64,000 bases of DNA from the NCBI GenBank assembly GCA_965226555.1, contig CBDDDG010000012.1, forward strand, positions 32,001 through 96,000, in the 5' to 3' direction. The stretch is from Salinispira sp. (GTDB lineage: Bacteria; Spirochaetota; Spirochaetia; DSM-27196; Salinispiraceae). The translations under genes were made by a program, and so were the position numbers. Position 1 is the first letter of the stretch; every line of letters starts with the position of its first letter. Under the pieces are notes generated by a model, which saw only the letters and a list, made by a program, of their open reading frames with translations, searched no databases and had not been told where the DNA came from. Positions 3,253 to 61,501 of the stretch are shown here, one piece after another.

Positions 3253-4248
3253 TTACTGCGATCCGTTCCGCACTGTCCGCATTTCCTCATCGCTCAGCCC
3301 CGTAACATCCTGAATGTCATGGGCTGAAAATCCTTTGGAAAACATACTGCGGGCGTTTTTTCTCCGCTCCTCAATATGTCCCTCCGCGCGACCTTTCAGA
3401 ATACCCCGCTCCATGCCTTTCAGAATACCTTTCTCCATGCCTTGGTTGACAAACCAATCACTCATCTGAACTTTTTTCATCATAACCCTTTCTCCTCCAG
3501 GATTTATTTCCCTGTTGATTTTTTCAAAGCGTGTATCCAGTTTCAAGGCCTTCAGATAGAGCAGAAGGTTCGGGATCATCTCGCGGGAATTCTCTGAGGG
3601 AAGTTCTTTCAGATACTTCGCAACCTTCCGCAAGTCTTCATCGCCTGTCTTACTGACTTTCCGCATAATATAGCACAGAGCTCCCCCTGTCAACACAACT
3701 CCGTCTGACCCCCGGGTAAACTCCTCCTCGCTCATCCTATTCAAATCGACCATCACAGGCCTATTGAGAACCTTTGGCCTCGCAAGATATTTTTCCATCA
3801 TTGTGTACAATTTTTCCGGTATGTGTGTATGCACATCCCCTGAACTGTGGAAACTGATATCGCCATCCCATATCGGTTCGCCATGATACCACAGCACCAG
3901 AACAAGAAGATCGGTCTGCGCCTGAAATGTCCTGCTGTTTATGAGGGCTTTCTGGTATTTATCGAACTGTTCGCTGACCTTTGGATCATACGCGCTTTTG
4001 TGCTCAATGAGGAGAACAATTCGTAAACCGTCGAATTCCCCTTTGAGGGGAATAATGAGAATGAGATCGCAGAGTACCTCACGCCCTTTGTCAACGTAGA
4101 TGGTGTTTTCGATGCGAATAGTATCTAAATCCATAATGTTAACGATGTTTTCTGGAAAAATTGTCCGTGGAATATCGGCTGCCGCCTCGGGGGTGCCATA
4201 GATACTCTTAAAAGCAATATCATGGATATTGTATCCGGAATTACTCAT
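3253..4248 (-). CDS. Rpn/YhgA-like PD-(D/E)XK nuclease, family 1 (RpnA), with internal small ORF 3253-3483
   Basis: HDIAFK...CDL...LIEHKS...LWYHGE motifs; G-x-x-x repeats and C-terminal HTH-like tail; AGGAGG SD. Confidence 0.88.
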   Translation of the reverse strand: MSNSGYNIHDIAFKSIYGTPEAAADIPRTIFPENIVNIMDLDTIRIENTIYVDKGREVLCDLILIIPLKGEFDGLRIVLLIEHKSAYDPKVSEQFDKYQKALINSRTFQAQTDLLVLVLWYHGEPIWDGDISFHSSGDVHTHIPEKLYTMMEKYLARPKVLNRPVMVDLNRMSEEEFTRGSDGVVLTGGALCYIMRKVSKTGDEDLRKVAKYLKELPSENSREMIPNLLLYLKALKLDTRFEKINREINPGGERVMMKKVQMSDWFVNQGMEKGILKGMERGILKGRAEGHIEERRKNARSMFSKGFSAHDIQDVTGLSDEEMRTVRNGSQ

Positions 4249-4264
4249 ACATACCTCCTGCTAT

Positions 4265-4722
4265 ATCTATAACGGGAGAACTGTCATTTTTAATTGTGTT
4301 TTTTGAAAGAATTTTGCAAAATTTGTGAATTTTTTTCGGGGAGTCGGGAATGGGGGGGGCTGGTATGCTCTGTGTTGATATACTTTTTGCTCATACCATA
4401 TAGACGGGTAAAATATAAACGGTGAATGATAAAATGAGAAAGTTTTGTAAAAAGTTTTATTACAGAGTTTTGCTACTGGAAATTGTGCTTGCACAATTTT
4501 CCAAGGCAAAACTTTCTACAAAATGAGAGTATGCTAAGCACAAAGACAGCATTCCACATGAGATATTGATCAGCCCGGACGCATGGGCGAACCGGTTGCT
4601 TGGGCGAGCAGCGCGACCAGCCCCTATCCCCAGCAACAGTCGCATGGCGCGCAGGCCGAGCGGCGCCAATTACTGCGATCCGTTCCGCACTGTCCGCATT
4701 TCCTCATCGCTCAGCCCGGTAA
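4265..4722. repeat. Direct repeat of about 458 bp (Rpn spacer plus Rpn 3' end), copy 1
   Basis: Near-identical to 5675-6132 at an offset of 1410 bp. Confidence 0.95.
4464..4555. repeat. Modular palindromic repeat (nested hairpin plus tail module)
   Basis: AGAGTTTTGC-TACTGG-AAATTGTGC-TT-GCACAATTT-TCCAAG-GCAAAACTTT followed by CTACAAAATGAGAGTATGCTAAGC. Confidence 0.9.
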
Positions 4723-5659
4723 CATCCTGAATGTCATGGGCTGAAAATCCTTTGGAAAACATACTGCGGGCGTTTTTTCTCCGCTCCTCAATATGCCCCT
4801 CAGCCCGGCCCTTCGTGATACCCTGTTCAAGACCCTCAATCCGGCCTTTCAGAATACCTTTCTCCATTCCTTCCCTGACGAAGGCGTTGGTAATATTATA
4901 TGTCCGCATACTGTTTTCTCCTCCATGGTACAGTTCCCTGTTAATTTTTTCAAACTGCTCATACAGTCCCAGATCTTTTAGATATCCTAGCACACTCTCT
5001 GCCAGATCAGTAAAGTCTTGTGATGACAGACCATTCAGGAGCTGCGCAATTTCTTTCAGCCCCTCAGCATTCATTTCATTATCTCTCATAATATACCACA
5101 ACGCAGTCGATGTATATCGTTTTCCATCGAAACGCAATGCCAACTGCTTTTTGTCCATTCGCCTCAGATCGCGCACAATGTACGACACTTTCACCTTGAC
5201 ATCTACCGTGCCTTCGATCATGGATTCGGAAGCAGCATTTCCATGAGAACTGTAAAATGTGAGTGGGAGGTTCCATTCATGTTTTCCATGATAGAGCAGC
5301 AGTATATAGATAGCATCCCTTTCATTGTACACATTGCTGTTTCTGAGTGCATACTGATAGTTATCGATTTGAGTGAGCGCATGTTTATTCAGGTAGCTTT
5401 TATGCTCAATAATGAACAGGGCCTTCCGCTTGGGGTCTGACAGGAAGGGGGCGCTGACAACGAGATCGCAGTGAAGGTTCTTTTTTCCCGCAATGTAGCT
5501 GGGGGTTTCAATGCGGATTTTGCCCAGATCCAGCTTGGTAAGCGTTGTATCCTCACAGAACAGCCGCAGCAGGTCGGGAATCATACGGGGGGTTCTGTAG
5601 TAGGCGATCTTGAAGGCTATGTCGTGGATATGGCCTGTGCTGTGGGATGATTTTTTCAT
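4670..5659 (-). CDS. Rpn/YhgA-like PD-(D/E)XK nuclease, family 2 (RpnB), with internal small ORF 4670-4909
   Basis: HDIAFK, CDLVV, IIEHKS and LLYHGK motifs; GTAGGAGG SD before ATG 5659 (5665 is an alternative start). Confidence 0.88.
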   Translation of the reverse strand: MKKSSHSTGHIHDIAFKIAYYRTPRMIPDLLRLFCEDTTLTKLDLGKIRIETPSYIAGKKNLHCDLVVSAPFLSDPKRKALFIIEHKSYLNKHALTQIDNYQYALRNSNVYNERDAIYILLLYHGKHEWNLPLTFYSSHGNAASESMIEGTVDVKVKVSYIVRDLRRMDKKQLALRFDGKRYTSTALWYIMRDNEMNAEGLKEIAQLLNGLSSQDFTDLAESVLGYLKDLGLYEQFEKINRELYHGGENSMRTYNITNAFVREGMEKGILKGRIEGLEQGITKGRAEGHIEERRKNARSMFSKGFSAHDIQDVTGLSDEEMRTVRNGSQ

Positions 5660-5674
5660 AAACATTCCTCCTAC

Positions 5675-6132
5675 ATCTATAACGGGAGAACTGTCATTTT
5701 TAATTGTGTTTTTTGAAAGAATTTTGCAAAATTTGTGAATTTTTTTTCGGGGAGACAGGAATGGGGGGGCTGGTATGCTCTGTGTTGATATACTTTTTGC
5801 TCATACCATATAGACGGGTAAAATATAAACGGTGAATGATAAAATGAGAAAGTTTTGTAAAAAGTTTTATTACAGAGTTTTGCTACTGGAAATTGTGCTT
5901 GCACAATTTTCCAAGGCAAAACTTTCTACAAAATGAGAGTATGCTAAGCACAAAGACAGCATTCCACATGAGATATTGATCAGCCCGGACGCATGGGCGA
6001 ACCGGTTGCTTGGGCGAGCAGCGCGACCAGCCCCTATCCCCAGCAACAGTCGCATGGCGCGCAGGCCGAGCGGCGCCAATTACTGCGATCCGTTCCGCAC
6101 TGTCCGCATTTCCTCATCGCTCAGCCCGGTAA
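5675..6132. repeat. Direct repeat of about 458 bp, copy 2 (contains the palindromic repeat at 5874-5965)
   Basis: Near-identical to 4265-4722. Confidence 0.95.
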
Positions 6133-6286
6133 TTCTCTGAACAGCCTCTGTCGACAAGCCTTCCGAAAACATACTGCGGGCCGTTTCTCGAATGCCTTCC
6201 TGCCTGCCCTTTGTGATACCCTGCTCAAGACCCTCAACCCGTCCCTGATTGACAAACCAATCACTCATCTGAACTTTTTTCATCAT
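6080..6286 (-). CDS. Small C-terminal Rpn protein (RpnS-like, 68 aa) left as a stand-alone ORF
   Basis: GGAGGAGAAAGAGTT-ATG; MMKKVQMSDWF...GLSDEEMRTVRNGSQ. Confidence 0.7.
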   Translation of the reverse strand: MMKKVQMSDWFVNQGRVEGLEQGITKGRQEGIRETARSMFSEGLSTEAVQRITGLSDEEMRTVRNGSQ

Positions 6287-6302
6287 AACTCTTTCTCCTC
6301 CA

Positions 6303-6376
6303 GAAACTTTTGGATGACTCTATGTGCTTAGCATTCTCGCATTTTGTAGAAAATTTTGCCTCAGGCAAAATTTTGT
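6303..6376. repeat. Modular palindromic repeat inserted in RpnA'
   Basis: Absent from the intact paralog at about 3500; contains AAAATTTTGCCTCAGGCAAAATTTT and the tail module. Confidence 0.9.
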
Positions 6377-7100
6377 TTCGGGATTAATTTCCCTGTTGAT
6401 TTTTTCAAAGCGTGTATCCAGTTTCAAGCCCTTCAGATAGAGCAGAAGGTTCGGGATCATCTCGCGGGAATTCTCTGCGGGAAGTTCCTTCAGATACTTC
6501 GCAACCTTCCTCAAGTCTTCATCGCCTGTCTTACTGACTTTCCGCATAATATAGCACAGGGCTCCCCCTGTCAACACTACCCCGTCTGACCCCCGGGTAA
6601 ACTCCTCCTCGCTCATCCTATTCAAATCGACCATCACAGGCCTATTGAGAACCTTTGGCCTCGCAAGGTATTTTTCCATCATTGTGTACAATTTTTCCGG
6701 TATGTGTGTATGCACATCCCCTGAACTGTGGAAACTGAGATCGCCTTCCCATAGTGCTTCGCCATGATACCATAGAACCAGAACAAGAAGATCGGTCTGC
6801 GCCTGAAATGTCCTGCTGTTTATGAGGGCTTTCTGGTATTTATCAAACTGTTCGCTGACCTTCGGATCATACGCGCTTTTGTGCTCAATAAGTAGCACGA
6901 TTCGTAAACCCTCGAATTCCCCTTTGAGGGGAATAATGAGAATGAGGTCGCAGAGTACCTCACGCCCTTTGTCAATGTAGATGGTGTTTTCGATGCGAAT
7001 AGTATCTAAATCCATAATGTTAACGATGTTTTCTGGAAAAATTGTCCGTGGAATATCGGCTGCCGCCTCGGGGGTGCCATAGATACTCTTAAAAGCAATA

Positions 7101-8353: not shown

Positions 8354-8593
8354 AATTTCAATCTTATTGAAGATTATACCTGATCATAATCTCTTTTGCA
8401 AGCAAAATGAGCATACCCCTTCGAAAATCCACTTATGCGCGGTATAATTCCCATTATTACGGGAGGGGAATTATGTGTTCTCAGAAAAAAGTGGTCTATG
8501 CGCCCGGTATTCCCGCCACATACTCACTGCTCAAGGGAAAAATCTCCCCAAAATATTCTGTCAAAACCCCGTCAAAAAATTTGTTGGGGAAGT
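8354..8593 (+). mobile_element. Internally deleted remnant of the 1462-bp IS
   Basis: First codons of the transposase (ATGTGTTCTCAGAAAAAAGTG) joined directly to the IS right end (GTCTATGCGCCCGG...TTGTTGGGGAAGT). Confidence 0.88.
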
Positions 8594-8614
8594 ATTACGC
8601 AAGAGCGAGTGTAT

Positions 8615-9757
8615 ATGGTAAAAATTAAAGATACCCCCCACGAGGGAGAACAAGGTGAATTTTTTGATATTTCTGAAATTGAAAAACTCGGTTCTCAGGT
8701 AAATATTTACAAAACAGACAAGCGTCATTATCAACCGAAACAATCAAAAAATGGATATTTTCAACTGCAAAATCGGCGTTACCTCGGTAATAAATATAAA
8801 TTACTTGGATTTATTGAAGATATAATCTCGGAAAAATGTGACTCTGTAAATTCACTTTGTGATATTTTTGCTGGCACCGGCGTTGTCGGTGAAAGGTTTA
8901 ATAGTCCTCATACAAAAATTATTTCTAACGATTTTTTATTTGCAAATTATGTCTGTCTGTATACTTTTTTAGATACCGATAAAGATTTACATGCAATTAT
9001 TTCTCAAAAAATAGATTATCTTAATAATGTGCTCGGCAACAAGGAAAATTATTTTTCAGAGCACTTTGGCGGTAGATATTTCACAAAGGATAACGCGCGA
9101 AAAATAGGGATAATCAGAGAAGAGATAGATAAAATTACACAAAATGAAAGTGAAAAAAATGTTTTGATATGTTCGTTAATATATGCGGCCGACAAGGTGG
9201 CAAATACAGTCGGACACTACGATGCCTTCCATAAAAAATTAACTATGCTTCAGCCGGTAAAATTGCTTGTTCCGGATGTCAGGTACGCGCATAATGCCTG
9301 CAATCAAATTTATAGAGAAGATGCCAATACCCTCATCAGGAAAATTTCTTGTGATGTCTTATATATTGACCCTCCGTATAATTCACGCCAATATTCTGAT
9401 GCATATCATCTTTTGGAAAATCTTGCAGAATGGAAGAAGCCAAAAGTTATTGGGGTTGGTAAAAAAATGGATCGCCTGCATATTAAAAGCGCGTATTGTC
9501 TCAAAAATGCAGCCTGTGCTTTCAGGGATTTAATCAAAAATGCAAGCTGCAAACATATTCTTTTTTCCTACAACAACACAGGTATCTCAAAAGATGGGCG
9601 CTCAAACGCGCGGATGAACGATACTGAAATTTTGCAGATTTTAAAGAATAAAGGAGATGTTGAGATTTTTGAAAAAAGTTATAAAGCTTTCAGCACAGGA
9701 AAAAGTAGCGGTGAAAATAACACAGAACGCATTTTTTATTGTAAGGTAATACCATAA
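8615..9757 (+). CDS. D12-class N6-adenine DNA methyltransferase
   Basis: RRYLGNKYKL, DIFAGTGVV and YIDPPYN; the longer ORF start at 8435 lies inside the IS remnant. Confidence 0.9.
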   Translation: MVKIKDTPHEGEQGEFFDISEIEKLGSQVNIYKTDKRHYQPKQSKNGYFQLQNRRYLGNKYKLLGFIEDIISEKCDSVNSLCDIFAGTGVVGERFNSPHTKIISNDFLFANYVCLYTFLDTDKDLHAIISQKIDYLNNVLGNKENYFSEHFGGRYFTKDNARKIGIIREEIDKITQNESEKNVLICSLIYAADKVANTVGHYDAFHKKLTMLQPVKLLVPDVRYAHNACNQIYREDANTLIRKISCDVLYIDPPYNSRQYSDAYHLLENLAEWKKPKVIGVGKKMDRLHIKSAYCLKNAACAFRDLIKNASCKHILFSYNNTGISKDGRSNARMNDTEILQILKNKGDVEIFEKSYKAFSTGKSSGENNTERIFYCKVIP

Positions 9758-9759
9758 CC

Positions 9760-11583
9760 ATGAAAAAACCATGGTCAATTACAACAACATTGAGGAATCC
9801 TGAAAGACTGAGAAATTTTTTGATTGTTCTGAAGCAACTCGAAAATCACACTTGGAGCAGCGAAACCCAAAAAGAATATCAAATACTCCTAATTCAAAAC
9901 AGAATATATGGTTATGGACGTTCCCAATTTTACAAGAACTTGAGACGTGAACAAGTTACTTTAATCAATAATGTGTCACAAAATATTTCATTTGCGCAGG
10001 CTGAGGAAATTTTCAACACTAAACGCTATATAGACTCGGCAATGCGTGGCAGACAATCATTAAATCCACTTAAAAAATTGGGTTTTGTTGCTATTGAACA
10101 TGGAAAATTAAAAATAACCGATCTGGGAAATCTTTTGCTGGAAGAAAATTTTGATTTTGGAGAACTTTTCTTTAGAAGTTTTTTAAAGTGGCAAATACCA
10201 AATCCCAATAGCTACCGAAGCTATCCTCCCAATGGGGTGTATAATATCAAACCGTTTATGGGAACCCTTCACTTGATTAACTCTGTTAATCAAAAAGAAA
10301 TCCTTCGCGGCAAGAAACGCAAAGGTATTAGTAAAGAAGAGTTTTCTCTTTTTTGTCCTACTCTTATTCATTATGACCTTATAGAGAAATATGCTGATGA
10401 AATAATAACGCTGAGAAATAAACTTGTCAAAAAGACCAAGGATGAACAAAGGGTGATTTTTAACGATTACAGAGACAAATTTGCCCGTGATTTCTTTAAC
10501 GTCAGTAACAAAAATGAAATTGATACACTGCTCAAAAATCTCCAGGATTATGGAGATAACGCGATTCGTTATTTTCGCTTAACTCGATATCTTTATATTC
10601 GCGGTCATGGTTTTTACGTTGATCTTGAACCGCGGAGAGAAGTTGAGATTAATTCTTTACTTGCGTACGACAATGCGCAAATACGGGAATTCGTATCAAA
10701 GAAAGAGTATTTGTCTTATATTTCAGACATTGCTCAGCCTCATTTACCATGGGAAACAAGGGAAAAGTATTGTGAAATTACAGAATTTCTCATAAGCGAA
10801 ATACATCAATATGAAAAAAGCTTAGGCAAAAAACGTACTGTCGTAAAGGCGCTTAAATCGATGCAGACAGGAGAATTGAAGGGCTATATTGCAACGCTCA
10901 GGACGTTCAGACGTCAACTACAGGAAGAAGAGAATTCGAGAAAATCTCAATCTATTGAAAAAATTCAATCATATATTGAATCATTTAAAAATATTGAGAG
11001 GTCTGATAACCGCCCTGTTCTGCTTGAACAGTTATCTACTCTTGGGTTATATGCACTCAATGATGCCTTAAAAATCCAACCAAATTATCCGGTTGGTGAT
11101 GATAATCAGCCAACTTTCACTGCTCCTGCGAACACACCGGATATTGAATGTTTTTATAAAAATTTCAACGCAATTTGTGAAGTAACCATGCTCAGAGGGC
11201 GCGATCAATGGTACAATGAGGGGCAACCAGTGATGAGACATTTGCGTGATTTTGAGGAAAAAAACCGCGACAAACCCTCATATTGTCTGTTCATTGCGCC
11301 AAGTTTACACCGAGACACGGTCAATACCTTTTGGGTGGCAATTAAATACGAGTATGAGGGAAAATTACAAAAGATTATCCCCCTCACAATCAGTGAATTT
11401 GTTTTAATTCTGAAAATATTACTCCAAATGAAAAAGGACGAAAAGGTCTTGAAGCATTCTGAAATATCTCGTTTATATGATGAGATTCTACAATCTTCAC
11501 AGTTATACAAGAATGCTCAGGAATGGGTAAAAAGTATTTCAGAAACTATCTCGACATGGGGAAACTCTGTAACCCAATCATAA
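9760..11583 (+). CDS. AlwI-family type IIS restriction endonuclease
   Basis: WSITTTLRNPER N-terminus; PDIE...EVTM...QWYNEGQPVMRH catalytic region; lies between two methyltransferases. Confidence 0.85.
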   Translation: MKKPWSITTTLRNPERLRNFLIVLKQLENHTWSSETQKEYQILLIQNRIYGYGRSQFYKNLRREQVTLINNVSQNISFAQAEEIFNTKRYIDSAMRGRQSLNPLKKLGFVAIEHGKLKITDLGNLLLEENFDFGELFFRSFLKWQIPNPNSYRSYPPNGVYNIKPFMGTLHLINSVNQKEILRGKKRKGISKEEFSLFCPTLIHYDLIEKYADEIITLRNKLVKKTKDEQRVIFNDYRDKFARDFFNVSNKNEIDTLLKNLQDYGDNAIRYFRLTRYLYIRGHGFYVDLEPRREVEINSLLAYDNAQIREFVSKKEYLSYISDIAQPHLPWETREKYCEITEFLISEIHQYEKSLGKKRTVVKALKSMQTGELKGYIATLRTFRRQLQEEENSRKSQSIEKIQSYIESFKNIERSDNRPVLLEQLSTLGLYALNDALKIQPNYPVGDDNQPTFTAPANTPDIECFYKNFNAICEVTMLRGRDQWYNEGQPVMRHLRDFEEKNRDKPSYCLFIAPSLHRDTVNTFWVAIKYEYEGKLQKIIPLTISEFVLILKILLQMKKDEKVLKHSEISRLYDEILQSSQLYKNAQEWVKSISETISTWGNSVTQS

Positions 11584-11587
11584 GAAT

Positions 11588-12355
11588 ATGAAAACAAACA
11601 TTATATATAATGAGGATTGTGTTGAGACACTCAACAAGAAAATAGATGAAGAATCTATTGATTTGATATTTGCCGATCCCCCATATAATCTGTCCGGCAA
11701 CGGTTTAAAGTGGAAGGGCAATAAAACTGGCGGAGATTGGTATATGGTAAATGAGGCATGGGACAAAATGTCCGCGCCGGAGCATGTACAATTTACAAGA
11801 AAATGGCTTAGTGCCTGTAATAGGGTTTTGAAAGACAAAGGAGCAATTTATGTTGCATGCAGTTACCATAACATTGCGGAAGTGATGATTGTGTTAAAAC
11901 AGCTTGATTACAAAATAAACAACATCATCACGTGGTATAAGACAAATGCGATGCCAAACATGACAAAACGAATGTTCACACACGCAACGGAATTTGTTGT
12001 CTGGGCGGTAAAAAAAAGTGGTTGGACATTTAACTATGAAGAGATAAAGAAAATAAATCCCGATAAACAAAAAAATGGTAATTTAAAACAGATGCGTGAT
12101 TTTTGGTCGCTCCCCCTCGTTCAGGGTAAGGAACGTTTGCGTAGTAAAAATGGACGCGCACTTCACCCAACACAAAAGCCCGAAGAAATGTTAAAGCGAA
12201 TTATTCTCGCAAGTTCCAACAAGGGCGATGTTGTTCTTGACCCCTTCCTAGGGAGCGGTACAACCTCTTATGTCGCAAAAAAATATGAACGTAAATGGAT
12301 TGGAATTGAAAAAGATAAGAAGTATGTAAAAATTGCCAAAGAAAGAATGAAGTAA
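11588..12355 (+). CDS. Beta-class N4/N6 DNA methyltransferase
   Basis: ADPPYN, HPTQKP and DPFLGSGTT. Confidence 0.92.
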   Translation: MKTNIIYNEDCVETLNKKIDEESIDLIFADPPYNLSGNGLKWKGNKTGGDWYMVNEAWDKMSAPEHVQFTRKWLSACNRVLKDKGAIYVACSYHNIAEVMIVLKQLDYKINNIITWYKTNAMPNMTKRMFTHATEFVVWAVKKSGWTFNYEEIKKINPDKQKNGNLKQMRDFWSLPLVQGKERLRSKNGRALHPTQKPEEMLKRIILASSNKGDVVLDPFLGSGTTSYVAKKYERKWIGIEKDKKYVKIAKERMK

Positions 12356-12379
12356 TTTTATATCCCGTATTCTCGATCA

Positions 12380-18205: not shown

Positions 18206-18946
18206 TTAAAATGTCTGCGGTTTAAAGTCTTCGGCGTTGATAATGGAGGCGCTGGAACCCGTGGCTTTAATGGCAAAGAGCTTCTTTTTTTGAGCGTATT
18301 TATCGGCCGATCCAACAACATTTATGTAGGCAACACCCCCGTAAATAATATCGTTTTGAAAGCGGGGCATGGCTGTTCGAAATAGTTTCATGCTCTTGAG
18401 AAAGTGATCCACATCTTCTACCCTGAGAGTGGTTTTAACTTCAATTACCACCGTTTCATTGCCGTTGCAGGCAATAAGATCAAACTCGGCAAGCGGTTTT
18501 CCCGGAACTTCTATATATTCTCTTCTAACCAAAGTTTTGTCTACGGTAATTCCTCTCATCTTGAGCAACCTTACCAAGTCGCCCTCCACCAAGCTCTCAA
18601 TGAGCTTGCCCCACTGGGAGGTAAAGAGTTCATCGAGCTTTTTTAGCCTGCGGTCGGTTTCCTTCTCTCGACGCTGAGACTCCTTCTCTCGACGCTGAGA
18701 CTCCTTCTCTCGACGCCGAGACTCCAGTCGGGACTCTTCCATTCGGCGGTCAGTTTCCTTCATTTGGCGGTCGGTTTCCTGCATTCGACGGTCGGTTTCT
18801 TGCATTTGGCGGTCGGTTTCCTGCATTCGACGGTCGGTTTCCTGCATTTGACGGTCAATTTCCTTCCCTCGACGCTCAGCCTCCTTTTGGGCCTTTGCCG
18901 TTTCTGCCATCATGTCTTTAATTTCTTGTACGGTTAGTTCTGCCAT
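18206..18946 (-). CDS. Coiled-coil heptad-repeat protein with C-terminal PD-(D/E)XK-like domain (DUF3782-like)
   Basis: (M)QETDRR heptads; WGKLIESLV, EFDL and IEVK; GGAGG SD. Confidence 0.75.
   Translation of the reverse strand: MAELTVQEIKDMMAETAKAQKEAERRGKEIDRQMQETDRRMQETDRQMQETDRRMQETDRQMKETDRRMEESRLESRRREKESQRREKESQRREKETDRRLKKLDELFTSQWGKLIESLVEGDLVRLLKMRGITVDKTLVRREYIEVPGKPLAEFDLIACNGNETVVIEVKTTLRVEDVDHFLKSMKLFRTAMPRFQNDIIYGGVAYINVVGSADKYAQKKKLFAIKATGSSASIINAEDFKPQTF
18655..18860. repeat. In-frame 21-bp tandem repeats
   Basis: Repeated CGGTCGGTTTCCTGCATT and CTCCTTCTCTCGACGCTGAGA units. Confidence 0.9.
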
Positions 18947-22104: not shown

Positions 22105-23166
22105 ATGAAGAAAAAGAAACGGAATCAGGCGGCTCATCAAAAGCCGCGAAAACAATGGGATGAAACTCATAAGTTCCTGTTTGCCGATGCGGAATCCATA
22201 TATCAACTGCTGCAATTTGTCGATGATGACTGGATCACCTCTATTCGCCCTGAGAACATTACGATTGTGAGCAATGAATTCATCGCTCGGGAGCTCGGAG
22301 GCAAGAAGCTGACGAAGCTCATGCGCAAAATATCGGATATTGTTGCGAAAATTTCCTTCCGATACGGGAACAAGAATGAAGAGAAAACCGTCTATATCAT
22401 TCTGGAACATCAATCGACTGTCGATTATTCCATGCGCAGGCGCCTATTCGTATACACCGATATGCTCGAACAGCATATTCGGAATTCGAAAACGTACCAA
22501 CATCATTGGGTATACCCCATTGTTCTGTACACGGGAATACGGAAATGGCCGCAGAACGCGACGGAAGAAACGCGGGCTGGGATTCCCCCGAGCGCATATC
22601 GCCAATTCTTCGAATATCCTGTTATTGATGTGCATAGGCTCCCGCATGAGAAAATACTGAAGTCCCACGGTCGTGTGGCTGCCTATTTTTACCTTGCGCG
22701 CTACAACAAAGATTTGAATAATGAGGATAATTGCGCTGAATTCACGAAGCATCTTTTGAACATTCTCCAGCATGATACTGGCGAAAAGGTGAAGGAGTCC
22801 TTGTTAATTATGAGCGATGTGCTCTATAATACACACATCTCAGGTGTGAATGTTAACGATTACACTATGAAGGAGGTAATTGATATGATTACAAAAGAAG
22901 GAATAGAAATACTGTTCCCGTGGGAACTGAGAATTTACAAAGAGGTCAAAGCCCAGGTCAAGCGAGAAACTCAGGAAGAAACGAAGGAAATGCAGCGGGA
23001 AGTCCGGCAGGAAGGTCGGCAGGAAGGACTGCGAACAGGTCGTGAAGAAGGCATTCGAGAAACTGCCCGCAGTATGTTTTTGGAAGGGTTGTCGACAGAG
23101 GCTGTTCAGAGGATTACCGGGCTGAGCGATGAGGAAATGCGGACATTGCGGAACGGATCGCATTAA
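22105..23166 (+). CDS. Rpn/YhgA-like PD-(D/E)XK nuclease, family 3 (RpnC), with internal small ORF 22885-23166
   Basis: SDIV, ILEHQSTVDYSMRRRL and YPIVLYTG...W; internal AAGGAGGTAATTGAT-ATG. Confidence 0.9.
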   Translation: MKKKKRNQAAHQKPRKQWDETHKFLFADAESIYQLLQFVDDDWITSIRPENITIVSNEFIARELGGKKLTKLMRKISDIVAKISFRYGNKNEEKTVYIILEHQSTVDYSMRRRLFVYTDMLEQHIRNSKTYQHHWVYPIVLYTGIRKWPQNATEETRAGIPPSAYRQFFEYPVIDVHRLPHEKILKSHGRVAAYFYLARYNKDLNNEDNCAEFTKHLLNILQHDTGEKVKESLLIMSDVLYNTHISGVNVNDYTMKEVIDMITKEGIEILFPWELRIYKEVKAQVKRETQEETKEMQREVRQEGRQEGLRTGREEGIRETARSMFLEGLSTEAVQRITGLSDEEMRTLRNGSH

Positions 23167-39302: not shown

Positions 39303-39977
39303 ATGGCGCGAATTGAAAATAGTACGGTTAAAGAGAGTTCAGGGGGATATCAGCGAATATTCGGAAATAAGGCATTGGGTGTTCTCATAAGCAGAATCCA
39401 GTCAACAGTTATATCTGCAGGATCTGAATTAGAGCGGATAATTCTTGACAGAGTGAATACCATTGATAATTTAAAATTGTTTCTTGAAAAACCGATTATG
39501 CCTGAAGGTGTTTTTGTGGCAAATAAGAAAGAAGTAAGAAATTGTCCGATATTGGATCATAGCTATGCATCCGAGCCTGATTTTGTTGTTTTCCGCCGCC
39601 GCGGAAATAAGCAATCGTGTCATGTTATTGAATTAAAAGATGGTCATATCTTTGATACAAAAAAAGCCAGAATCGAACACAGAACCATACGCAACTTTAT
39701 TGAACGAAACGGACCTCGAATACAATATACAGTAAATGGTTATATTTGTTGTTTTAATCAGGATGACCCTGAAGCTATTGTTGCGGGCTTTAAGAATCAG
39801 ATATCGGCAGACGAGGCGTTAACAGGGCGACAATTTTGTAAACTATTAGCGATAGACTATGATAAGATTGTACATGAACGAAAAAAGGATCAATCGAAAA
39901 ATGTAAATTTCTTTGTTAAGGAATTATTAAAGATACCTGCCATCAGGAATCGCATTGAGAAAAATTTGGGTGGATAA
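39303..39977 (+). CDS. Putative type II restriction endonuclease
   Basis: EPDF...IELKDG PD-(D/E)XK motif; abuts the methyltransferase; AT-rich. Confidence 0.7.
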   Translation: MARIENSTVKESSGGYQRIFGNKALGVLISRIQSTVISAGSELERIILDRVNTIDNLKLFLEKPIMPEGVFVANKKEVRNCPILDHSYASEPDFVVFRRRGNKQSCHVIELKDGHIFDTKKARIEHRTIRNFIERNGPRIQYTVNGYICCFNQDDPEAIVAGFKNQISADEALTGRQFCKLLAIDYDKIVHERKKDQSKNVNFFVKELLKIPAIRNRIEKNLGG

Positions 39978-52746: not shown

Positions 52747-54304
52747 ATGAAAATTACGTCATACAGTTGGGGGGGGGGGGGTAGCCCTTTTCACATTCTG
52801 TGCAATAGCTATTGCGTTGATTTCTGGATGTCCAATGATAACTGCACCGCCGACCATGTCTGCTCCGACTCTGGTAGCGGGGAACGAACAGCTCACCGTA
52901 TCATGGATTGATCCTGCTACATGGAATTGGGGGTGGGGGGAGAACAACACAGACAACGATATTACTACATATCACCTGCGCTATCGGGAAGACGGCAGCG
53001 AGGGCTGGACGGAGATCAACTCCGGTATTACCGGCGTAAGCCACACCATTACCGAGCTGACAAACGGCCTCAGTTATGCCGTGCAGGTGCGCGCCGTCAA
53101 CGCGCAGGGCACTGGCGGCTGGTCGGCATCGGCCACGGCACGCCCTATTGCGCCGCCAACTGCGCCCCCTACCGCGCCGGGTACCATGGTTGCTCCAACC
53201 CTTGAAGTGGAAAATGGGTTACTCATTGCGAAATGGACTGCGCCGGAAAATGATGGCGGCAGCCCCATTACCGGGTATGAGCTGCAATATCGTACAGATG
53301 ACGGAGATTGGACGCGCATTACTTCCGGCATTGCCTGCGCACGCGGCGAGGGGCAGGCAGAAGTCTGTCATTTTTCCTTCTCATCGTACTCTCCCTACAC
53401 AATTCACAGCATTACGGCAGACGGCGCCAACTACCAACTACAGGTACGCGCCGTCAACGATCAAGGCGCGGGCAAATGGTCTTCATTCGCAATGTTCCCG
53501 TTTCCGTTTGCAACGCAGCTTCCAGCGGGCGAGTCAACGGTCGTAATTGTTCCGGCTGATATTGATAACCCCCTTGCCCCTGAAATTGCCACTGAGCTCA
53601 GCGTTTCTTTGACCACGGTGGGGGCGCGCAATATCACGGTCGAGGATGGAGACATTACGGCGGTTACTCCCACAGATACGCCCAATGGGGTCACCCCACC
53701 GACTGTCGATTCGAGCAGCGGACTTATTACGCTTACGGTTACCGCAGATACAACGGCAGGAACATATGTGATATATGACGATGCAATCGGAACCGATGGT
53801 CAACGGTTTGCCGAGTATTTCTCCGTTACCCTGAGTCCTCAAACTAACGCTGAACTGAAAACGGCGGTAACTGAGGCGATAGGAGACTACAACGATGACA
53901 ATGACTCTGGAATGTGGGGCAATACTGCCGATCTCAACTACATTATTACCACGGCAGTAAGAGATATGAGCCAGGTTTTTCAGAATGCAAGAACATTCAA
54001 TGGTGATATCTCACTCTGGGATGTCAGTTCGGTAACGAATATGACCAATATGTTCTTTTTTGCACCTGCATTCAATGGTGATATCTCGGGCTGGGATGTC
54101 AGCTCGGTAACGACTATGGAAGTTATGTTCAATAGTGCAACCGCATTCAATCAGAATCTTGAGGAGTGGAAGAACCATTGGACGCCTGCAACCGGCAACA
54201 AGCTTACTACCGCTGATCCTCCCAAATATACCGGAACCACAACAAATATGTTTACGAGTTCCGGCGTGAACACCGCTAATGGTAATGTGCCGTCATGGTA
54301 TTAG
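52747..54304 (+). CDS. Surface lipoprotein, 2x FN3 + DUF285 (BspA-like); frameshifted at a G13 tract (52769-52781)
   Basis: GGAGGT SD + ATG 52747; with G12 the frame reads MKITSYSWGGGVALFTFCAIAIALISG-C into ORF 52817. Confidence 0.88.
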
Positions 54305-54393: not shown

Positions 54394-54706
54394 CGATAAG
54401 ACGGCCGGCCGGCAGCGGCGTCTCCTGCTCGCAATGCGACTGTTGCTGAGACGGTGAGCTGGTCGTAGACTTGCGCCTCCTGGGCTGGTCGCGCTTCAGC
54501 GCTGCTCGCCCAAGCATCCGGCTCGCTCATGCGCTGGATCAGGCTAATATCCCGAAAAAGAGGATACAACGCTTGCCAAGCTGGATCTGGACAAAATCCG
54601 CATTGAAACCCCCAGCTACATTGCAGGAAAAAAGAACCTTCACTGCGATCTCGTTGTCAGCACCCCCTTCCTGTCAGACCCCGACCGGAAAGCCCTGTTT
54701 ATTACT

Positions 54707-54830
54707 GAAAATTTTGCTCCGCAAAATTTTCCAATGAGGATTCTCTTATCTATACTCTTGATTCTCTCACGGTATAGAAAGTTTTGCCTTGGAAAATTGT
54801 GCAAGCACAATTTCCAGTAGCAAAACTTTT
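54707..54830. repeat. Modular palindromic repeat inserted at the Rpn IEHKS motif
   Basis: The intact paralog reads TTTATTATTGAGCACAAAAGC continuously at about 60660. Confidence 0.92.
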
Positions 54831-55328
54831 GTATTGAACACAAAAGCTACCTGAATAAACATGCTCTCACACAGATCGATGACTATCAATATGCCCTCAG
54901 AAACAGCAATGTGTACAATGAAAGGGATGCTATCTATATACTGCTGCTCTACCATGGAAAAAAGGAATGGAACCTCCAGCGCGAATTTTATAGTTCGCAT
55001 GGAAATCCAGCTTCCGAATCCCTTACCGAAGGCACGGTAGATGTCAGGGTGAAAGTGTCGTACATTGTGCGCGATCTTTGTAGAATGACAAAGAAACAGT
55101 TGGCATGGCGTTCTGATGAAAAACGATATACATCGACTGCGTTGTGGTATATAATGCGAGACAATGAGATGGATGTTGAGGGGCTGAAAGAAATTGCGCA
55201 GCTCCTGAACGGTTTGTCATCACAAGACTTTACTGATCTAGCAGAGAGTGTGCTAGGCTATCTGAAAGATCTAAATCCACAACTGTATGAACAGTTTGAG
55301 AAAATTGACAGGGAACTGTTCCCTAGAC

Positions 55329-55453
55329 AAAGTTTTGCCGCAGGCAAAACTTTCTACAAAATGAGAGAATGCCAAGCGCAACGAGGCATGCCAAATGTGA
55401 AACTTTTGCTACTGGAAATTGTGCAAAGCACAATTTTCCAATGCAAAAGTTTC
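55329..55453. repeat. Modular palindromic repeat inserted just upstream of the internal SD
   Basis: The intact paralog reads CTATATCCTGAAGGAGAAAACAGTATG continuously at about 61142. Confidence 0.92.
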
Positions 55454-55469
55454 AGTAGGAGAAAACAGT

Positions 55470-55700
55470 ATGCGGACATATAACATAACCAACGCCTTCG
55501 TCAGAGAAGGCATGGAGAAAGGCATTCTGAAAGGCCGGGTTGAGGGTCTTGAGCAGGGACTTGAGCAAGGACAAGCTCAGCTCCAGCGTGAGTATGTACT
55601 CAAAATGCTCAGGAAGGGCATGTCGATGGATATTATTCATGAGTTAACCGAGCTCAGCGAAGATGAAATTCGAGCATTTCAGAAAAACGGCGAAGCGTAG
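55470..55700 (+). CDS. Small C-terminal Rpn protein (RpnS-like, 76 aa) left as a stand-alone ORF
   Basis: TAGGAGAAAACAGT-ATG; MRTYNITNAF...LTELSEDEIRAFQKNGEA. Confidence 0.7.
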   Translation: MRTYNITNAFVREGMEKGILKGRVEGLEQGLEQGQAQLQREYVLKMLRKGMSMDIIHELTELSEDEIRAFQKNGEA

Positions 55701-55744: not shown

Positions 55745-55887
55745 AAAGTTTTGCATTGATAAACTTTTGCTACTGAAAATTTTGCTCTGCAAAATTTTCC
55801 AATGAGGATTCTCTCATCCATATGTTTGATTCTCTCAAGGTATAGAAAGTTTTTCCACAGGAAAAACTTTATCAATGCAAAACCTTC
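55745..55887. repeat. Modular palindromic repeat, composite
   Basis: Outer AAAGTTTTGCATTGATAAA...TTTATCAATGCAAAACCTT enclosing inner hairpin modules. Confidence 0.9.
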
Positions 55888-55914
55888 TATTATAATTAAA
55901 CGGAGGATCAGGAA

Positions 55915-57222: not shown

Positions 57223-57292
57223 ACGGGCAACATTTGGCAAAACCTGGTTTTTGCATTGATAAAGTTTTAGCACGCAGGCAGAGCAACGTCAA

Positions 57293-58345
57293 TTAATGCG
57301 ATCCGTTCCGCAATGTCCGCATTTCCTCATCGCTCAGCCCGGTAATTCTCTGAACAGCCTCGGTCGACAACCCTTCCAAAAACATACTGCGGGCCGTTTC
57401 TCGAATGCCTTCTTCACGACCTTCCTGTCGACCTGTTTGCAGTCCTGTCTGCAGTCCTTCCTGTCGACCTTCTTCACGGCCTTCCTGCCGACCTGTTTGC
57501 AGTCCTGTCTGCAGTCCTTCCTGCCGACCCATTTCCGCAATGTGCGCTCTGAATGTTTCCGCATTCATTCTGAACATTTTCGCTACCTCCTTACCTCTCG
57601 GTTCTTTTGTTCTTTCTAACTGGTTCATTAGCGTGTCAAAGTCTATAACAATTCCGAACATCGAATCTACCACGCCAATAAATTCCTTTATCAGCTCCAG
57701 CGATTCCTCATTCAGCATTTCTGCTATCGCGTTCTCCACCTTCTGAATGTCCCAATCCGTATTCAGCAGATTTTTCGAGTACAGATCAAGGTACATAACA
57801 GCCGCAAACATTCTTCCCCGCTGCTGCAGCTGCTCCGCAGAATAATCGCTCTCACTTATCAGCTCGTAAGGAAAAGGAGCAAGATACTGCGGGAATTTCC
57901 GCTTCCGTTGCTTTCTGACATTCCCGGGCACCTTCCATTTTCTCGTACCATTATAAAACACAATGGGCAGAAATATCAACTCGCAGTCATCGGGAATTGC
58001 GCCGGAGCGGTGAATGTTCCGGTAGAGAAGGTTTGTGTACTCCGACATGCGGAGGGGCATGTCTTTGTCCACTCCAGACTGATGCTCAAGGAGCACATAG
58101 ATAGCAACATCTCCCGTGTGATCCCGAGTTCTGATTTTGCAGATAATGTCGGCCATTCGTGTTTTCGCATGATCGATGAAAAAGGTACCGTTTTCGATGG
58201 TGATATCCTCGATTCGGAGTTTTTTCGTCCATGCGCCTCCGACAAAGCGTTGAAGAAATTGGAGCATTATTGCGGGTTGGAACAGCAGGGAGCGGTATCC
58301 TTGGTCGTAGGGAACGGGGGCGGGTTTTTCTTTGAAATCGATCAT
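57293..58345 (-). CDS. Rpn/YhgA-like PD-(D/E)XK nuclease, family 4 (RpnE), with internal small ORF 57293-57577
   Basis: YDQGYR, ADII, LLEHQSGVDKDMPLRM and PIVFYNG...W; CAGGAGG SD; internal AAGGAGGTAGCGAAA-ATG. Confidence 0.92.
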   Translation of the reverse strand: MIDFKEKPAPVPYDQGYRSLLFQPAIMLQFLQRFVGGAWTKKLRIEDITIENGTFFIDHAKTRMADIICKIRTRDHTGDVAIYVLLEHQSGVDKDMPLRMSEYTNLLYRNIHRSGAIPDDCELIFLPIVFYNGTRKWKVPGNVRKQRKRKFPQYLAPFPYELISESDYSAEQLQQRGRMFAAVMYLDLYSKNLLNTDWDIQKVENAIAEMLNEESLELIKEFIGVVDSMFGIVIDFDTLMNQLERTKEPRGKEVAKMFRMNAETFRAHIAEMGRQEGLQTGLQTGRQEGREEGRQEGLQTGLQTGRQEGREEGIRETARSMFLEGLSTEAVQRITGLSDEEMRTLRNGSH

Positions 58346-58569
58346 ATAATCCTCCTGAACGTTTCTTTCTGAATAGGGGAGCTCCCATGGCGACATGGTC
58401 CCATGGTGAATTCTCCCCTCTATATCTGTGACGGGTAAACTGTCATTTTTAACTATGTATTTTGAAAGAATTTGAAAAAAGTTTGCCTTTTATAAAACAT
58501 TTTTATTGCATGGATTCTTTGTACATGATACTATGCAACAATCTTATAATTTATCGTGAGGAGGAAATC

Positions 58570-60153
58570 ATGAACATTAAATTATACAAGGGAACCCGGT
58601 TTCTACTCTGCGCGATGTGCATAGCATTAATTGCTGCATGTCCGATGCCGGAACCCGAGCCAACTGTGCCGGGTACAATAGGTGCCCCAGACCTTAAAGC
58701 GGGGAATGGGCAACTAACGGTTAACTGGACTGCGCCGAACAATGGCGGCAGCGAAATTACCACATACCACCTTCACCATAGCACGGACGGCGGTACCACG
58801 TGGTCGGAAATTATTGTACTTGCCGCGCCAGCCGCAAGCTACACCATTATGGACCTGAGAAACGCCGCTGAGTACCATGTACAGGCGCGCGCCGTCAATG
58901 CAGTCGGCGCTGGGACATGGTCGGAATCTGCCGTTGAAACTCTCCCTGCTGTTGCAACTCCCTCTGCCACCGTTCCTGACGCGCCGGCTGCCCCAACCCT
59001 TGAACCGGGGAACAGGCATCTCATAGTTGCATGGGCTGCGCCGGACGATGGCGGGAGCGAAATTACCACATACCACCTTCACCATAGTGCGGACGGCGGT
59101 ACCACGTGGTCGGAAATTATTGTACTTGCCGCGCCAGCCGCAAGCTACACCATTAGAGGCCTGAGAAACGGCACTCCCTACGAAGTACAGGCGCGCGCCG
59201 TGAACAACGAGGGCGCGGGTATGTGGTCGGAAATTGCAACGGAAACGCCGTTAGTTGTTGCGGCGCAACAGACTCCGGGGGGTACGGCAGCATCGCTAAG
59301 CCTTTCGGCTGCCAATACTGCCATAATTGCCAGTGAGAATCTAACCGTTAAGTTGACCACGGCGGAACCGGGTACTCTCGCGGCCAATGAAAGATCAGGA
59401 ACCATTACGGTTACCCCCGCAACTGCGCCCGATGGGGTTAGCATTCCGACTGTTGATTCGAGCAGCGGAGTTATTACGGTTACTACAAGTACAACGGCAG
59501 GAACATATCTGGTATATGGTGAAACCGGAAGCGGAGACATACTCTTTGCCGAATATCTCTCTGTTACCGTGAGCCCTACTACTAACGCTCAACTGAAAAC
59601 AGCGGTAAATACCGGGATATCAAACTGGGGAGATACTGCCGATCTCAACTACATTATTACCACCGCAGTAACGGATATGTCCACTGTTTTCAAGAATAAC
59701 ACCACATTCAATGGCGATATCTCACTTTGGGATACTACAGCGGTAACGGATATGAACAATATGTTCTATTTAACAATCTTATTCGATGGCGATATCTCTG
59801 GCTGGGATACTGGCGCGGTAACGAATATGATGCATACGTTCTATTCTGCAGCCTCATTCAATGGTGATATCTCGGGATGGGATGTCAGTTCGGTAACAAA
59901 TATGTCTTGGATGTTCAATGCTGCAGGCATATTCAATATTGATATTTCCGGCTGGGATGTCAGCAAGGTAACGAATATGCACTGGATGTTCCAGAGCGCA
60001 AGCGCATTCAATGTCGATCTTGAGGAGTGGAAGGAACATTGGACCTCCGAAACTGGCAACAAGCTCAATGCTTCTGGCAAATATACCGGAAACAAAACAG
60101 ATATGTTTCAGGGTTCCGGCGTGACAGGTGATCTGATTCCGTCATGGCTTTAG
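58570..60153 (+). CDS. Surface lipoprotein, 2x FN3 + DUF285 (BspA-like), in frame
   Basis: GAGGAGG SD; MNIKLYKGTRFLLCAMCIALIAA-C lipobox; no long G tract. Confidence 0.92.
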   Translation: MNIKLYKGTRFLLCAMCIALIAACPMPEPEPTVPGTIGAPDLKAGNGQLTVNWTAPNNGGSEITTYHLHHSTDGGTTWSEIIVLAAPAASYTIMDLRNAAEYHVQARAVNAVGAGTWSESAVETLPAVATPSATVPDAPAAPTLEPGNRHLIVAWAAPDDGGSEITTYHLHHSADGGTTWSEIIVLAAPAASYTIRGLRNGTPYEVQARAVNNEGAGMWSEIATETPLVVAAQQTPGGTAASLSLSAANTAIIASENLTVKLTTAEPGTLAANERSGTITVTPATAPDGVSIPTVDSSSGVITVTTSTTAGTYLVYGETGSGDILFAEYLSVTVSPTTNAQLKTAVNTGISNWGDTADLNYIITTAVTDMSTVFKNNTTFNGDISLWDTTAVTDMNNMFYLTILFDGDISGWDTGAVTNMMHTFYSAASFNGDISGWDVSSVTNMSWMFNAAGIFNIDISGWDVSKVTNMHWMFQSASAFNVDLEEWKEHWTSETGNKLNASGKYTGNKTDMFQGSGVTGDLIPSWL

Positions 60154-60196
60154 TTTCATAGCCCGCAACGGCTAATGAAACATTGCAATTCAACTC

Positions 60197-60239
60197 AGGC
60201 AGGCGCGGGGCGCCGATCAGCCCCGTGCCTGCCTTTTTT
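60197..60239 (+). terminator. Rho-independent terminator
   Basis: AGGCAGGCGCGGGGC-loop-GCCCCGTGCCTGCCT followed by a T run; homolog of 54350. Confidence 0.85.
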
Positions 60240-60415
60240 CGATAAGACGGCTGGTCGGCGTTGCGCGGCTGCTCGCCCAAGTGCATCCGGCTCGCCATGC
60301 GGCGGGGCTGATCAAACAGTAATATCCCAAAATAATAGAAACTTTTTTCAAAAACTTTCTCATTTTGTCATTCATATCTCGTTTTTCTCCCGTCACAGAT
60401 GTAGGAGGAAAATGT

Positions 60416-61501
60416 ATGAAAAAATCATCCCAGAGCACAGGCCACATCCACGACATAGCCTTCAAGATCGCCTACTATAGAACCCCCCGGCTGATTCCCG
60501 ACCTGCTGCGGCTGTTCTGTGAGGATACTGCGCTTGCCAAGCTGGACTTGGGCAAAATCCGCATTGAAACCCCCAGCTACATTGCAGGAAAAAAGAACCT
60601 TCACTGCGATCTCGTTGTCAGCGCCCCCTTCCTGTCAGACCCCAAGCGGAAATCTCTGTTTATTATTGAGCACAAAAGCTACCTGCACAAACACGTTCTC
60701 ACACAGATTGATGACTATCAATATGCCCTCAGAAACAGCAATGTGTACAATGAAAATGATGCTATCTATATACTTCTGCTCTACCATGGAAAAAAGGAAT
60801 GGAACCTTCCACTCACATTTTACAGTTCACATGGAAATCCAACCTCTGAATCCATGACTGAAGGCACGGTAGATGTCAGGGTGAAAGTGTCGTACATTGT
60901 GCGCGATCTGAGGAGAATGACAAAGAAGCAGTTGGCATTGCGCTCCGATGAAAAACGATATACATCGACTGCGTTGTGGTATATAATGCGAGATAATAAA
61001 ATGGATGCTGAGGGGCTGAAAGAAATTGCGCAGCTCCTGAACGGTCTGTCATCACAAGACTTTACTGATCTGGCAGAGAGTGTGCTAGGCTATCTAAAAG
61101 ATCTGGGACTGTATGAGCAGTTTGAGAAAATTGACAGGGAACTATATCCTGAAGGAGAAAACAGTATGCGGACATATAATATTACCAACGCCTTCGTCAG
61201 GGAAGGCATGGAGAAAGGAATGGAGAAAGGTATTCTGAAAGGTCGGATTGAAGGTCTTGAGCAGGGTATCACAAAGGGCAGGGCTGAGGGCATGGAGAAA
61301 GGCGTTCTGAAGGGCCGGATTGAAGGTCTTGATCAGGGTATCACAAAGGGCAGGCAGGAAGGACTGCGAACAGGTCGTGAAGAAGGCATTCGAGAAACTG
61401 CCCGCAGTATGTTTTCCAAAGGATTTTCAGCCCATGACATTCAGGATGTTACCGGGCTGAGCGATGAGGAAATGCGGACAGTGCGGAACGGATCGCATTA
61501 A
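60416..61501 (+). CDS. Rpn family 2 nuclease (RpnF), with internal small ORF 61166-61501
   Basis: Close paralog of 4670-5659; GTAGGAGG SD; expanded G-x-x-x repeats. Confidence 0.9.
   Translation: MKKSSQSTGHIHDIAFKIAYYRTPRLIPDLLRLFCEDTALAKLDLGKIRIETPSYIAGKKNLHCDLVVSAPFLSDPKRKSLFIIEHKSYLHKHVLTQIDDYQYALRNSNVYNENDAIYILLLYHGKKEWNLPLTFYSSHGNPTSESMTEGTVDVRVKVSYIVRDLRRMTKKQLALRSDEKRYTSTALWYIMRDNKMDAEGLKEIAQLLNGLSSQDFTDLAESVLGYLKDLGLYEQFEKIDRELYPEGENSMRTYNITNAFVREGMEKGMEKGILKGRIEGLEQGITKGRAEGMEKGVLKGRIEGLDQGITKGRQEGLRTGREEGIRETARSMFSKGFSAHDIQDVTGLSDEEMRTVRNGSH

Follow-up and report, generated by a model that had tools for sequence, protein, structure and literature searches.

Pooling of tail blocks across subfamilies of an expanded Rpn/YhgA-like gene family in Salinispira sp.

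The 64,000-nt stretch of the Salinispira sp. genome analysed here (the window, to which all positions refer; the genome is denoted G000) carries eight Rpn-type loci: genes A, B, A′, C, D, E and F, and a fragment, G. Judged by their sequence, these are Rpn/YhgA-like genes, each composed of a nuclease head and a tail, with a predicted antitoxin, RpnS, within the 3′ end. The tail is described below by three blocks: H1 (HIEERRKNA or IRETA), H2 (SKGF or EGL) and H3 (helix 3). The loci, together with the miniature inverted-repeat transposable elements (MITEs), the insertion sequence (IS) and the helix-turn-helix (HTH) coding blocks associated with them, are as follows.

3253..4248, reverse strand: Rpn gene A (subfamily A), open, 331 aa; tail HIEERRKNA + SKGF + TGLSDEEMRTV
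3483-3253, reverse strand: predicted RpnS of gene A, 76 aa; Shine–Dalgarno (SD) sequence GGAGGAG ahead of an internal ATG
4250..4669, reverse strand: spacer between genes B and A; 3′ flank, MITE arm, shortened H-subfamily 5′ end, leader
4670..5659, reverse strand: Rpn gene B (subfamily B), open, 329 aa; tail identical to that of gene A at 113/114 nt
4909-4670, reverse strand: predicted RpnS of gene B, 79 aa
5670..6079, reverse strand: spacer between genes A′ and B, twin of the spacer at 4250-4669
6080..7099, reverse strand: Rpn gene A′, broken, its 5′ end truncated by an IS at ~7100; tail IRETA + SEGL + TGLSDEEMRTV
6304-6381: MITE of 78 nt in gene A′, splitting the nuclease from the RpnS frame
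6286-6080, reverse strand: open RpnS frame of gene A′, 68 aa
7100..8314, forward strand: transposase open reading frame (ORF; HTH + integrase core) adjoining the A′ head, which we take to be of an IS481-like family
22105..23166, forward strand: Rpn gene C (subfamily C), open, 353 aa; tail IRETA + LEGL + TGLSDEEMRTL
22885-23166, forward strand: predicted RpnS of gene C, 93 aa
23167..23324, forward strand: H-type tail remnant immediately 3′ of the gene C stop
54560..55700, forward strand: Rpn gene D, a B-subfamily head interrupted by two MITEs
~54703-54831 and ~55325-55454: the MITEs in gene D
55470-55700, forward strand: open RpnS frame of gene D, 76 aa; B peptide + H-subfamily tail, with the junction at a LEQG repeat
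57293..58345, reverse strand: Rpn gene E (subfamily E), open, 350 aa; tail identical to that of gene C at 111/114 nt
57577-57293, reverse strand: predicted RpnS of gene E, 94 aa
60416..61501, forward strand: Rpn gene F (subfamily B), open, 361 aa; hybrid tail IRETA + SKGF
61166-61501, forward strand: predicted RpnS of gene F, 111 aa
61614..61872, forward strand: G, a 5′ fragment of a B-subfamily head without a tail
61400..61415 and 23065-23080, forward strand: conserved 16-nt block 1 (end of the long helix)
3339-3354, 4756-4771, 6166-6181 and 57379-57394, reverse strand: further copies of block 1
61454..61480 and 23119-23145, forward strand: conserved 27-nt block 2 (HTH turn + helix 3)
3274-3300, 4691-4717, 6101-6127 and 57314-57340, reverse strand: further copies of block 2

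The two spacers of the A′-B-A array (4250-4669 and 5670-6079) are identical over their initial 300 nt and near-identical as far as the ribosome-binding site (RBS). The IS abutting A′ has ~20 full copies genome-wide, and a version of A′ free of the MITE is present in contigs of one metagenome run (X1), as a joint 6298-6377. An Rfam search of the window returned no match.

Six of the seven ORFs tested (A, A′, B, C, E and F) match PF04754 above its cut-off, gene A with E = 6e-16, and the truncated ORF of gene D gave no match. TIGR01784 is above cut-off in A, C, E and F, with gene B falling below (40.7 vs 52.1). Head identities are 34% for A and B, 27.5% for C and E and 19% for A and C, and the nucleases of the seven subfamilies recognised genome-wide are 19-43% identical to each other; the heads are thus homologous and not, as the original prediction had it, four unrelated nuclease families. 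A PD-(D/E)XK-type pattern (HD..D..EHKS/EHQS) is found in 68/75 open A, B, C and E genes; across 95 homologues D65 is invariant, and E85, H86, K87 and S88 are each conserved at 90% or more. Three open B genes of G000 (C10:484252, C12:114914 and C18:8953) carry Ala or Gly in place of the invariant Asp and likely encode inactive nucleases, their tails being intact. Structural comparison with Foldseek gave no match at E 0.001 or better, the best being weak similarities to XisH, McrC and EndoMS (E 0.008 or worse), and the match to the RpnAS structure 7TH0 is also weak (E 0.5). PADLOC gave no match for A, B and C and a marginal one for the tail of E. All seven RpnS frames of the window have an SD sequence (GGAGGAG, AAGGAG(G) or AGGAG) 5-8 nt 5′ of the ATG, as read from the DNA, and the repeat tract of 117 A, B and E genes comprises 2-21 variable four-residue units, all lengths being multiples of four.

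Heads this divergent end in tails that are nearly the same. In the final 114 nt, A and B agree at 113 sites, C and E at 111, and A and C at 85, and blocks 1 and 2 are both exact in A, B, A′, C, E and F; the C-terminal sequences and shared 3′ ends given in the original prediction are therefore correct. Its two proposed hybrids fared differently. Gene F is a clear case, with a tail matching C over the first 33 nt and A/B beyond the 16-nt block, whilst A′ is a weak one, being like C/E at 109-110/114 nt, with about two codons and the 3′ flank A/B-like. The tail of D, previously described as unrelated, is identical to the others at 59-63/114 nt and proves to be the one native to a fifth subfamily, H.

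The same arrangement extends across the genome (2.98 Mb in 26 contigs, 93.5% complete with 6.67% contamination; a metagenome-type assembly). Iterative tblastn, the later rounds of which drifted to IS matches and were filtered by motif, reduced 294 ends to 169 tails, and 217 tblastn segments span 169 kb. A subfamily peptide could be assigned on 159 tails (B 69, E 50, C 13, A 12, H 12, I 2 and J 1); 85 of these 159 loci have no second tail within 2.5 kb, and they are scattered across 19 contigs. In comparison, thirty relatives have 0-6 PF04754 matches each, and a first look, the candidates of which do not equal copy numbers, gave 161 candidates here against at most 23 among the matches listed for 400 genomes of the phylum. 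Related pieces are contained in contigs of sponge and cave metagenome runs.

Genome-wide, tail blocks recombine between subfamilies as had been predicted. All four combinations of H1 and H2 are found in each of A, B, C and E, and association tests on 119 of 144 loci (the remaining 25 have rarer blocks) gave p=0.37 for family against H1, p=0.17 for family against H2 and p=0.82 for H1 against H2. A 36-nt SKGF block is identical to the letter in 43/46 carriers drawn from four subfamilies (A4, B16, C5, E18). Chance does not account for this block or for the shared tails, since tail identity between genomes averages 39% with a maximum of 67% (1871 pairs). The histories of heads and tails disagree: the tail states require 10 and 11 changes on the E head tree, compared with 11.0 and 12.0 when shuffled (p=0.28 and 0.30), and one pair of E heads that are 99.5% identical have tails differing at 27/114 sites. 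Exchange between neighbours of different subfamily was considered as the main route and rejected, as the 12 near pairs differ at 19.4/114 sites, compared with 20.0 for distant pairs. In another assembly, a transposase fragment (protein P0049; PF00665, PF13276) is joined in frame to the shared Rpn tail, indicating that the tail is able to join non-Rpn frames.

The shared tails do not look like collapsed repeats. Of 133 tails, 107 are distinct, and proteins from contigs outside G000, 79-91% identical to the best G000 locus, show the same mixes (B+HIEE+SKGF, B+HIEE+LEGL, B+IRETA+SKGF, B+H tail, A+IRETA+LEGL and E+HIEE+SKGF), of which A+IRETA+LEGL is absent from G000; this makes misassembly unlikely. 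Weaker support comes from contigs of other studies, which are short and carry both alleles of both blocks. The junction of gene F is spanned, with 2 differences, by a 47-nt piece of run X4, and no contig was found with 31 letters on each side. Orthologous loci were sought in two metagenome scans and none was confirmed.

What moves is considerably smaller than the repeat-plus-HTH module originally proposed. The vocabulary of the repeats is largely specific to the subfamily: among mid repeats, E-type units account for 99% in E but 4% in B, climbing in B from that mid-tract value to 18-45% in the last three units. Hence most repeats remain with the nuclease, and just the last one to three repeats and the HTH move. 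An AlphaFold model of B (95 rows; mean predicted local distance difference test score, pLDDT, 87.6) places the peptide, repeats and H1 in a single helix (248-302), followed by H2 (307-314) and H3 (318-327), with the peptide region less certain (pLDDT 64-71). The tail blocks thus coincide with modelled helices, the mobile part being the end of the long helix and the HTH. By contrast with the tail, the peptide at the start of RpnS follows its nuclease, as had been claimed, matching the upstream head in all window genes and in 142/142 loci of A, B, C and E that have a head. Mismatches number 5 among 153, and all are small H genes standing alone 298-493 nt downstream of another head. That the peptide sets cognate binding is plausible on this pattern, and the scarcity of homology at this position predicts the same linkage. 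In open A and B genes mostly 7-11 nt (at most 15) are shared 5′ of the RpnS start. At the junction that recombines freely the figure is mostly 13-17 nt (runs of 10-18 nt), so the tie between peptide and head can be explained by homology alone.

Recombination is not confined to the tail. Within heads, r2 falls from 0.22-0.25 at 1-10 nt to 0.05-0.06 at 31-60 nt, reaching background by ~30 nt (permutation p=0.0005 for the 45 rows of B and likewise for the 38 rows of E). Of the site pairs separated by over 30 nt in B and E heads, 62-82% show four gametes, and MITE markers show four gametes in 6/10 pairs. The IS transposase (17 distinct copies) and the FN3 repeats likewise display distance-dependent incompatibility (p=0.001), over longer distances for the IS, and the DUF285 blocks, the MITEs and the nine-copy family of window position 18206 served as controls without a distance signal. 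Linkage decay in heads and recombination of IS copies argue against a special interchangeable tail cassette of the kind first suggested. Shufflons and invertible hsdS loci generate combinatorial C-terminal variants; in this genome no dedicated recombinase, inverted cassette array, or fixed or single crossover site was found, and the loci are dispersed.

The positions of the junctions follow homology. They lie in shared stretches of 11-27 nt, with crossovers scattered over the last repeats and two HTH junctions. In B genes with an H tail, 11/11 are joined at an EQG repeat common to H, and no H tail occurs among 50 E genes, from which the GLEQ unit is absent; the Fisher test (p=0.002) overstates this difference, as the 11 cases represent perhaps four or five events. 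The leader is shared too: at least 100 nt of B leader precede 4/5 A, 54/69 B, 38/50 E and 0/15 C starts. Shared leaders and shared tails would be equally consistent with movement of the heads between flanks that the copies have in common. The 3′ flanks are highly variable, with 115 distinct 60-mers among 133.

Heads and RpnS frames differ in how well they are preserved. Heads are broken in 69/144 loci, with 80 insertions of at least 60 nt in 50 heads, and RpnS frames in 4/148, compared with 21% expected from length; the MITE motif was not found in any RpnS frame. Frames that stay open while heads are broken would fit an antitoxin under selection, although faster conversion and target bias could also lie behind the intact frames. 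The ratio of nonsynonymous to synonymous polymorphism (pN/pS) is 0.25 in B heads and 0.16 in E heads, equal in open and broken copies, and 0.05 (B) and 0.25 (E) in the peptide. In the tail blocks it is 0.05 for H1, 0.10-0.27 for H2 and 0.8 for H3, which is nearly invariant. A diversifying system, as envisaged in the original prediction, does not agree with these values for H1 and H2, nor with tails that are homogenised across subfamilies into few blocks.

The MITE is a REP-like (repetitive extragenic palindromic) element, an AT-rich hairpin of 78-131 nt with 184 and 75 matches to its two hairpins, and is inserted at few fixed sites of Rpn heads, both at the window positions listed above (6304-6381, 54703-54831 and 55325-55454) and genome-wide. 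In 5 A, 17 B and 9 E copies it lies just 5′ of the RpnS ribosome site, where it splits one gene into a truncated nuclease and a small gene of its own; A and B also carry it at the same spot ahead of the IEHK motif. Subfamily H is mostly fragmentary, with 32 starts and 2 open genes. Its 5′ end precedes 25/69 B and 20/50 E genes, and an H tail or small gene stands behind some of them, as if the B and E genes had landed inside H genes.

The pattern is found in other spirochaete genomes, though not in most. Of 14 further genomes surveyed, seven have gene pairs with heads less than 50% alike, and in two of these tail identity exceeds the between-genome maximum of 67% taken as threshold: G145 (86, 83 and 74%) and G058 (72%, leaving out the pair L065-L073, since the L073 head is partial). 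In G145 the heads concerned are 22-28% identical and the tails 74-86%, with an identical run of 37 nt. A same-family pair in that genome has heads 75% and tails 46% identical, and one of its members shares 71-74% with two other families; such a mismatch of tail and head indicates that the window pattern recurs there. In a third genome, G358, the loci L011-L033 are 23 Rpn genes of one family that vary in repeat number and carry peptides of VESIARKL and MRSIADEL types.

Taken together, these data are probably best explained by short-tract, homology-limited ectopic gene conversion within an expanded Rpn family, which mixes the tail blocks. Gene conversion would act wherever two Rpn copies have enough common sequence; between subfamilies only the leader, the last repeats and the HTH are still alike, so that only these would be exchanged, and the restriction to still-similar parts would make the tail look like a cassette. 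Owing to the gene-in-gene design (Zhong et al., PMC10400941), a tail swap would alter RpnL and RpnS together, so that the locus would stay self-matched and the swap be tolerated. Cognate specificity would then reside in the peptide and repeat helix, with helices 2-3 acting as a generic exchangeable cap. In published work, adding one repeat abolished neutralisation and RpnL was suggested as a possible initiator of such recombination (PMC10400941), and residual activity persisted in the absence of the tail (PMC5350276).

Several observations weigh against this explanation, or against its being complete. The expected incongruence of head and tail trees is less evident for B, where tail states need 20 and 23 changes compared with 24.4 and 26.0 shuffled (p=0.017 and 0.06), a slight clustering; both head trees are poorly resolved, and tandem duplicates, which render locus counts non-independent, cluster on the B tree. 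Mixing is not entirely free: subfamily A has SEGL exclusively (7/7, vs 9/64 in B and E), C retains its own helix 3 in 10/13, and B and E differ at a V/L site. Variation in the SKGF block is far lower than in the heads (pS 0.011 vs ~0.2), which could be due to a selective sweep instead of drift. A MITE lies just before the RBS in 31 copies, which thereby have as many as 63 bases in common, and yet no mismatch of head and peptide is found among them, a hint of selection beyond homology. Exchange at blocks of 13-17 nt is not accounted for by loss of mismatch repair, which was rejected given that mutS, mutL and recA are all present and open. Finally, 5/7 testable genomes showed no tail sharing above background, and in G358 the two peptide types occur on heads at least 80% identical in 252/253 pairs, which indicates that coupling of peptide and head is not universal.

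Amongst the alternatives, one is that breaks made by Rpn are repaired via the shared leader and HTH tail, such that the genome would hold a networked TA population in which any nuclease draws any tail allele, with alleles, the recently spread SKGF block for instance, being selected for altering the trigger of toxin release. We regard this as unlikely; were it true, tail pooling would be a general rule of Rpn genes, seen in at least three spirochaete lineages.

It also appears improbable that the spread is selfish, with Rpn breaks repaired from other copies by way of the shared leader and tail, nuclease, peptide and repeats copied between these common flanks in a homing-like manner, and addiction retaining the copies. 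The tandem A′-B-A array, with its near-identical spacers and 113/114 tails flanking heads that are 34% alike, the B leader common to most A, B and E starts, the H 5′ fragments before B and E genes and the excess of first-look candidates would all suit this idea, as would the reported rise in RecA-independent recombination, and the primable ends left behind, when Rpn is overexpressed (PMC5350276). However, the 3′ flanks are highly variable, C has little common leader, and PMC10400941 reports no indication of autonomous transposition. Selfish spread is nonetheless compatible with gene conversion, for which it could be the driving force.

That the HTH tail is instead an adaptive sensor or stability module, its alleles reshuffled onto nucleases for wider phage coverage, we judge quite improbable. 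Intermediate allele frequencies in all subfamilies, the uniformity of the SKGF block, the occurrence of the same alleles in other assemblies and runs, the recurrence in G145 and G058 and the distinctness of 141/144 RpnS proteins are in keeping with it, as are the reported phage protection by one Rpn (PMC10400941) and the presence of type II restriction-modification genes in the window. On the other hand, recombination is equally dense in heads and occurs in IS copies, tails are homogenised with low pN/pS in H1 and H2 (0.8 in the near-invariant H3), RpnS diversity is mostly of repeat number, which is already known, over half of the loci stand without another tail nearby, and about half of the heads are broken. 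Nothing found in the sequence favours a dedicated cassette system or a phage sensor. An assembly artefact, in which repeats were collapsed or cross-polished, is very unlikely indeed: the assembly is of metagenome type with 26 contigs and 6.67% contamination, the best runs contain just 49% of its words, and cross-polishing could contribute fine mosaic noise, but the tails are mostly distinct, the junction blocks (16-27 nt) are under the assembly word length, the same mixes and alleles occur in outside proteins and other studies' contigs, and the signal of purifying selection is intact.

By its sequence features the system falls within the known gene-within-gene toxin–antitoxin (TA) family Rpn/YhgA (PMC10400941; COG5464), with which the loci share the PD-(D/E)XK-type head, the SD sequence and internal start, four-residue repeats in a long helix, a terminal HTH, tandem arrays, stand-alone small genes and fusions of a head to a downstream tail. 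They differ in number, ~160 loci compared with a largest named count of 26 (about six times), and in that seven subfamilies pool tail blocks. Small genes standing alone are of another subfamily (H) in this genome; in E. coli, by contrast, each RpnS groups with the gene upstream of it. Cross-subfamily tail exchange is not described in the available main text of PMC10400941, the supplement figures of which may show related cases, and a literature search covering few subscription journals found no paper describing Rpn tails pooled between subfamilies or so large an expansion.

Movement of target recognition domains (TRDs) in the type III mod genes of H. pylori (Furuta and Kobayashi, PMC3467074) is similar in that a domain moves between divergent paralogues with incongruent trees, and in its short recombination stretches (8-32 bp on one side, vs 11-27 nt here). 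There, however, it is the specificity domain that moves, with a change of function, whereas here the most conserved part moves and the part presumed to set specificity remains in place. In symbionts, concerted evolution of IS and repeat families by gene conversion (Wolbachia, cited in PMC3196728) likewise involves exchange between broken and intact copies and recombination of IS, but here a TA family is concerned, and subfamily borders are crossed only in tail and leader.

The surroundings of the Rpn genes in the window include three sets of type II restriction-modification genes (8435-12355, 27508-29315 and 38520-39977) and a HEC-01A-like ATPase (29420-30700). Genes for FN3 + PARCEL (DUF285)-repeat surface proteins (20202-21824, 52817-54304 and 58462-60153) are often close to Rpn genes and belong to a large family with 236 distinct 320-nt blocks. 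A coiled-coil protein with 7-residue repeats (18206-18946, reverse strand) has ~9 genome copies and a C-terminus that is weakly nuclease-like (PF18743, E 0.005).

Questions that remain open for Rpn proteins include the site of RpnS specificity, the multiplication of repeats and copies, and toxin release (PMC10400941; PMC10400984). The ~140 loci constitute a natural recombination map, which separates what is swappable (the end of helix 1 and helices 2-3) from what is not seen moving (the peptide and most repeats). The swaps cross nucleases that are 19-34% alike. The map gives sharp and cheap predictions on RpnS specificity, and recurrence in two other genomes suggests that the pattern is not a one-off. 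If the gene conversion reading is true, the tip of the tail would not determine which toxin an antitoxin blocks.

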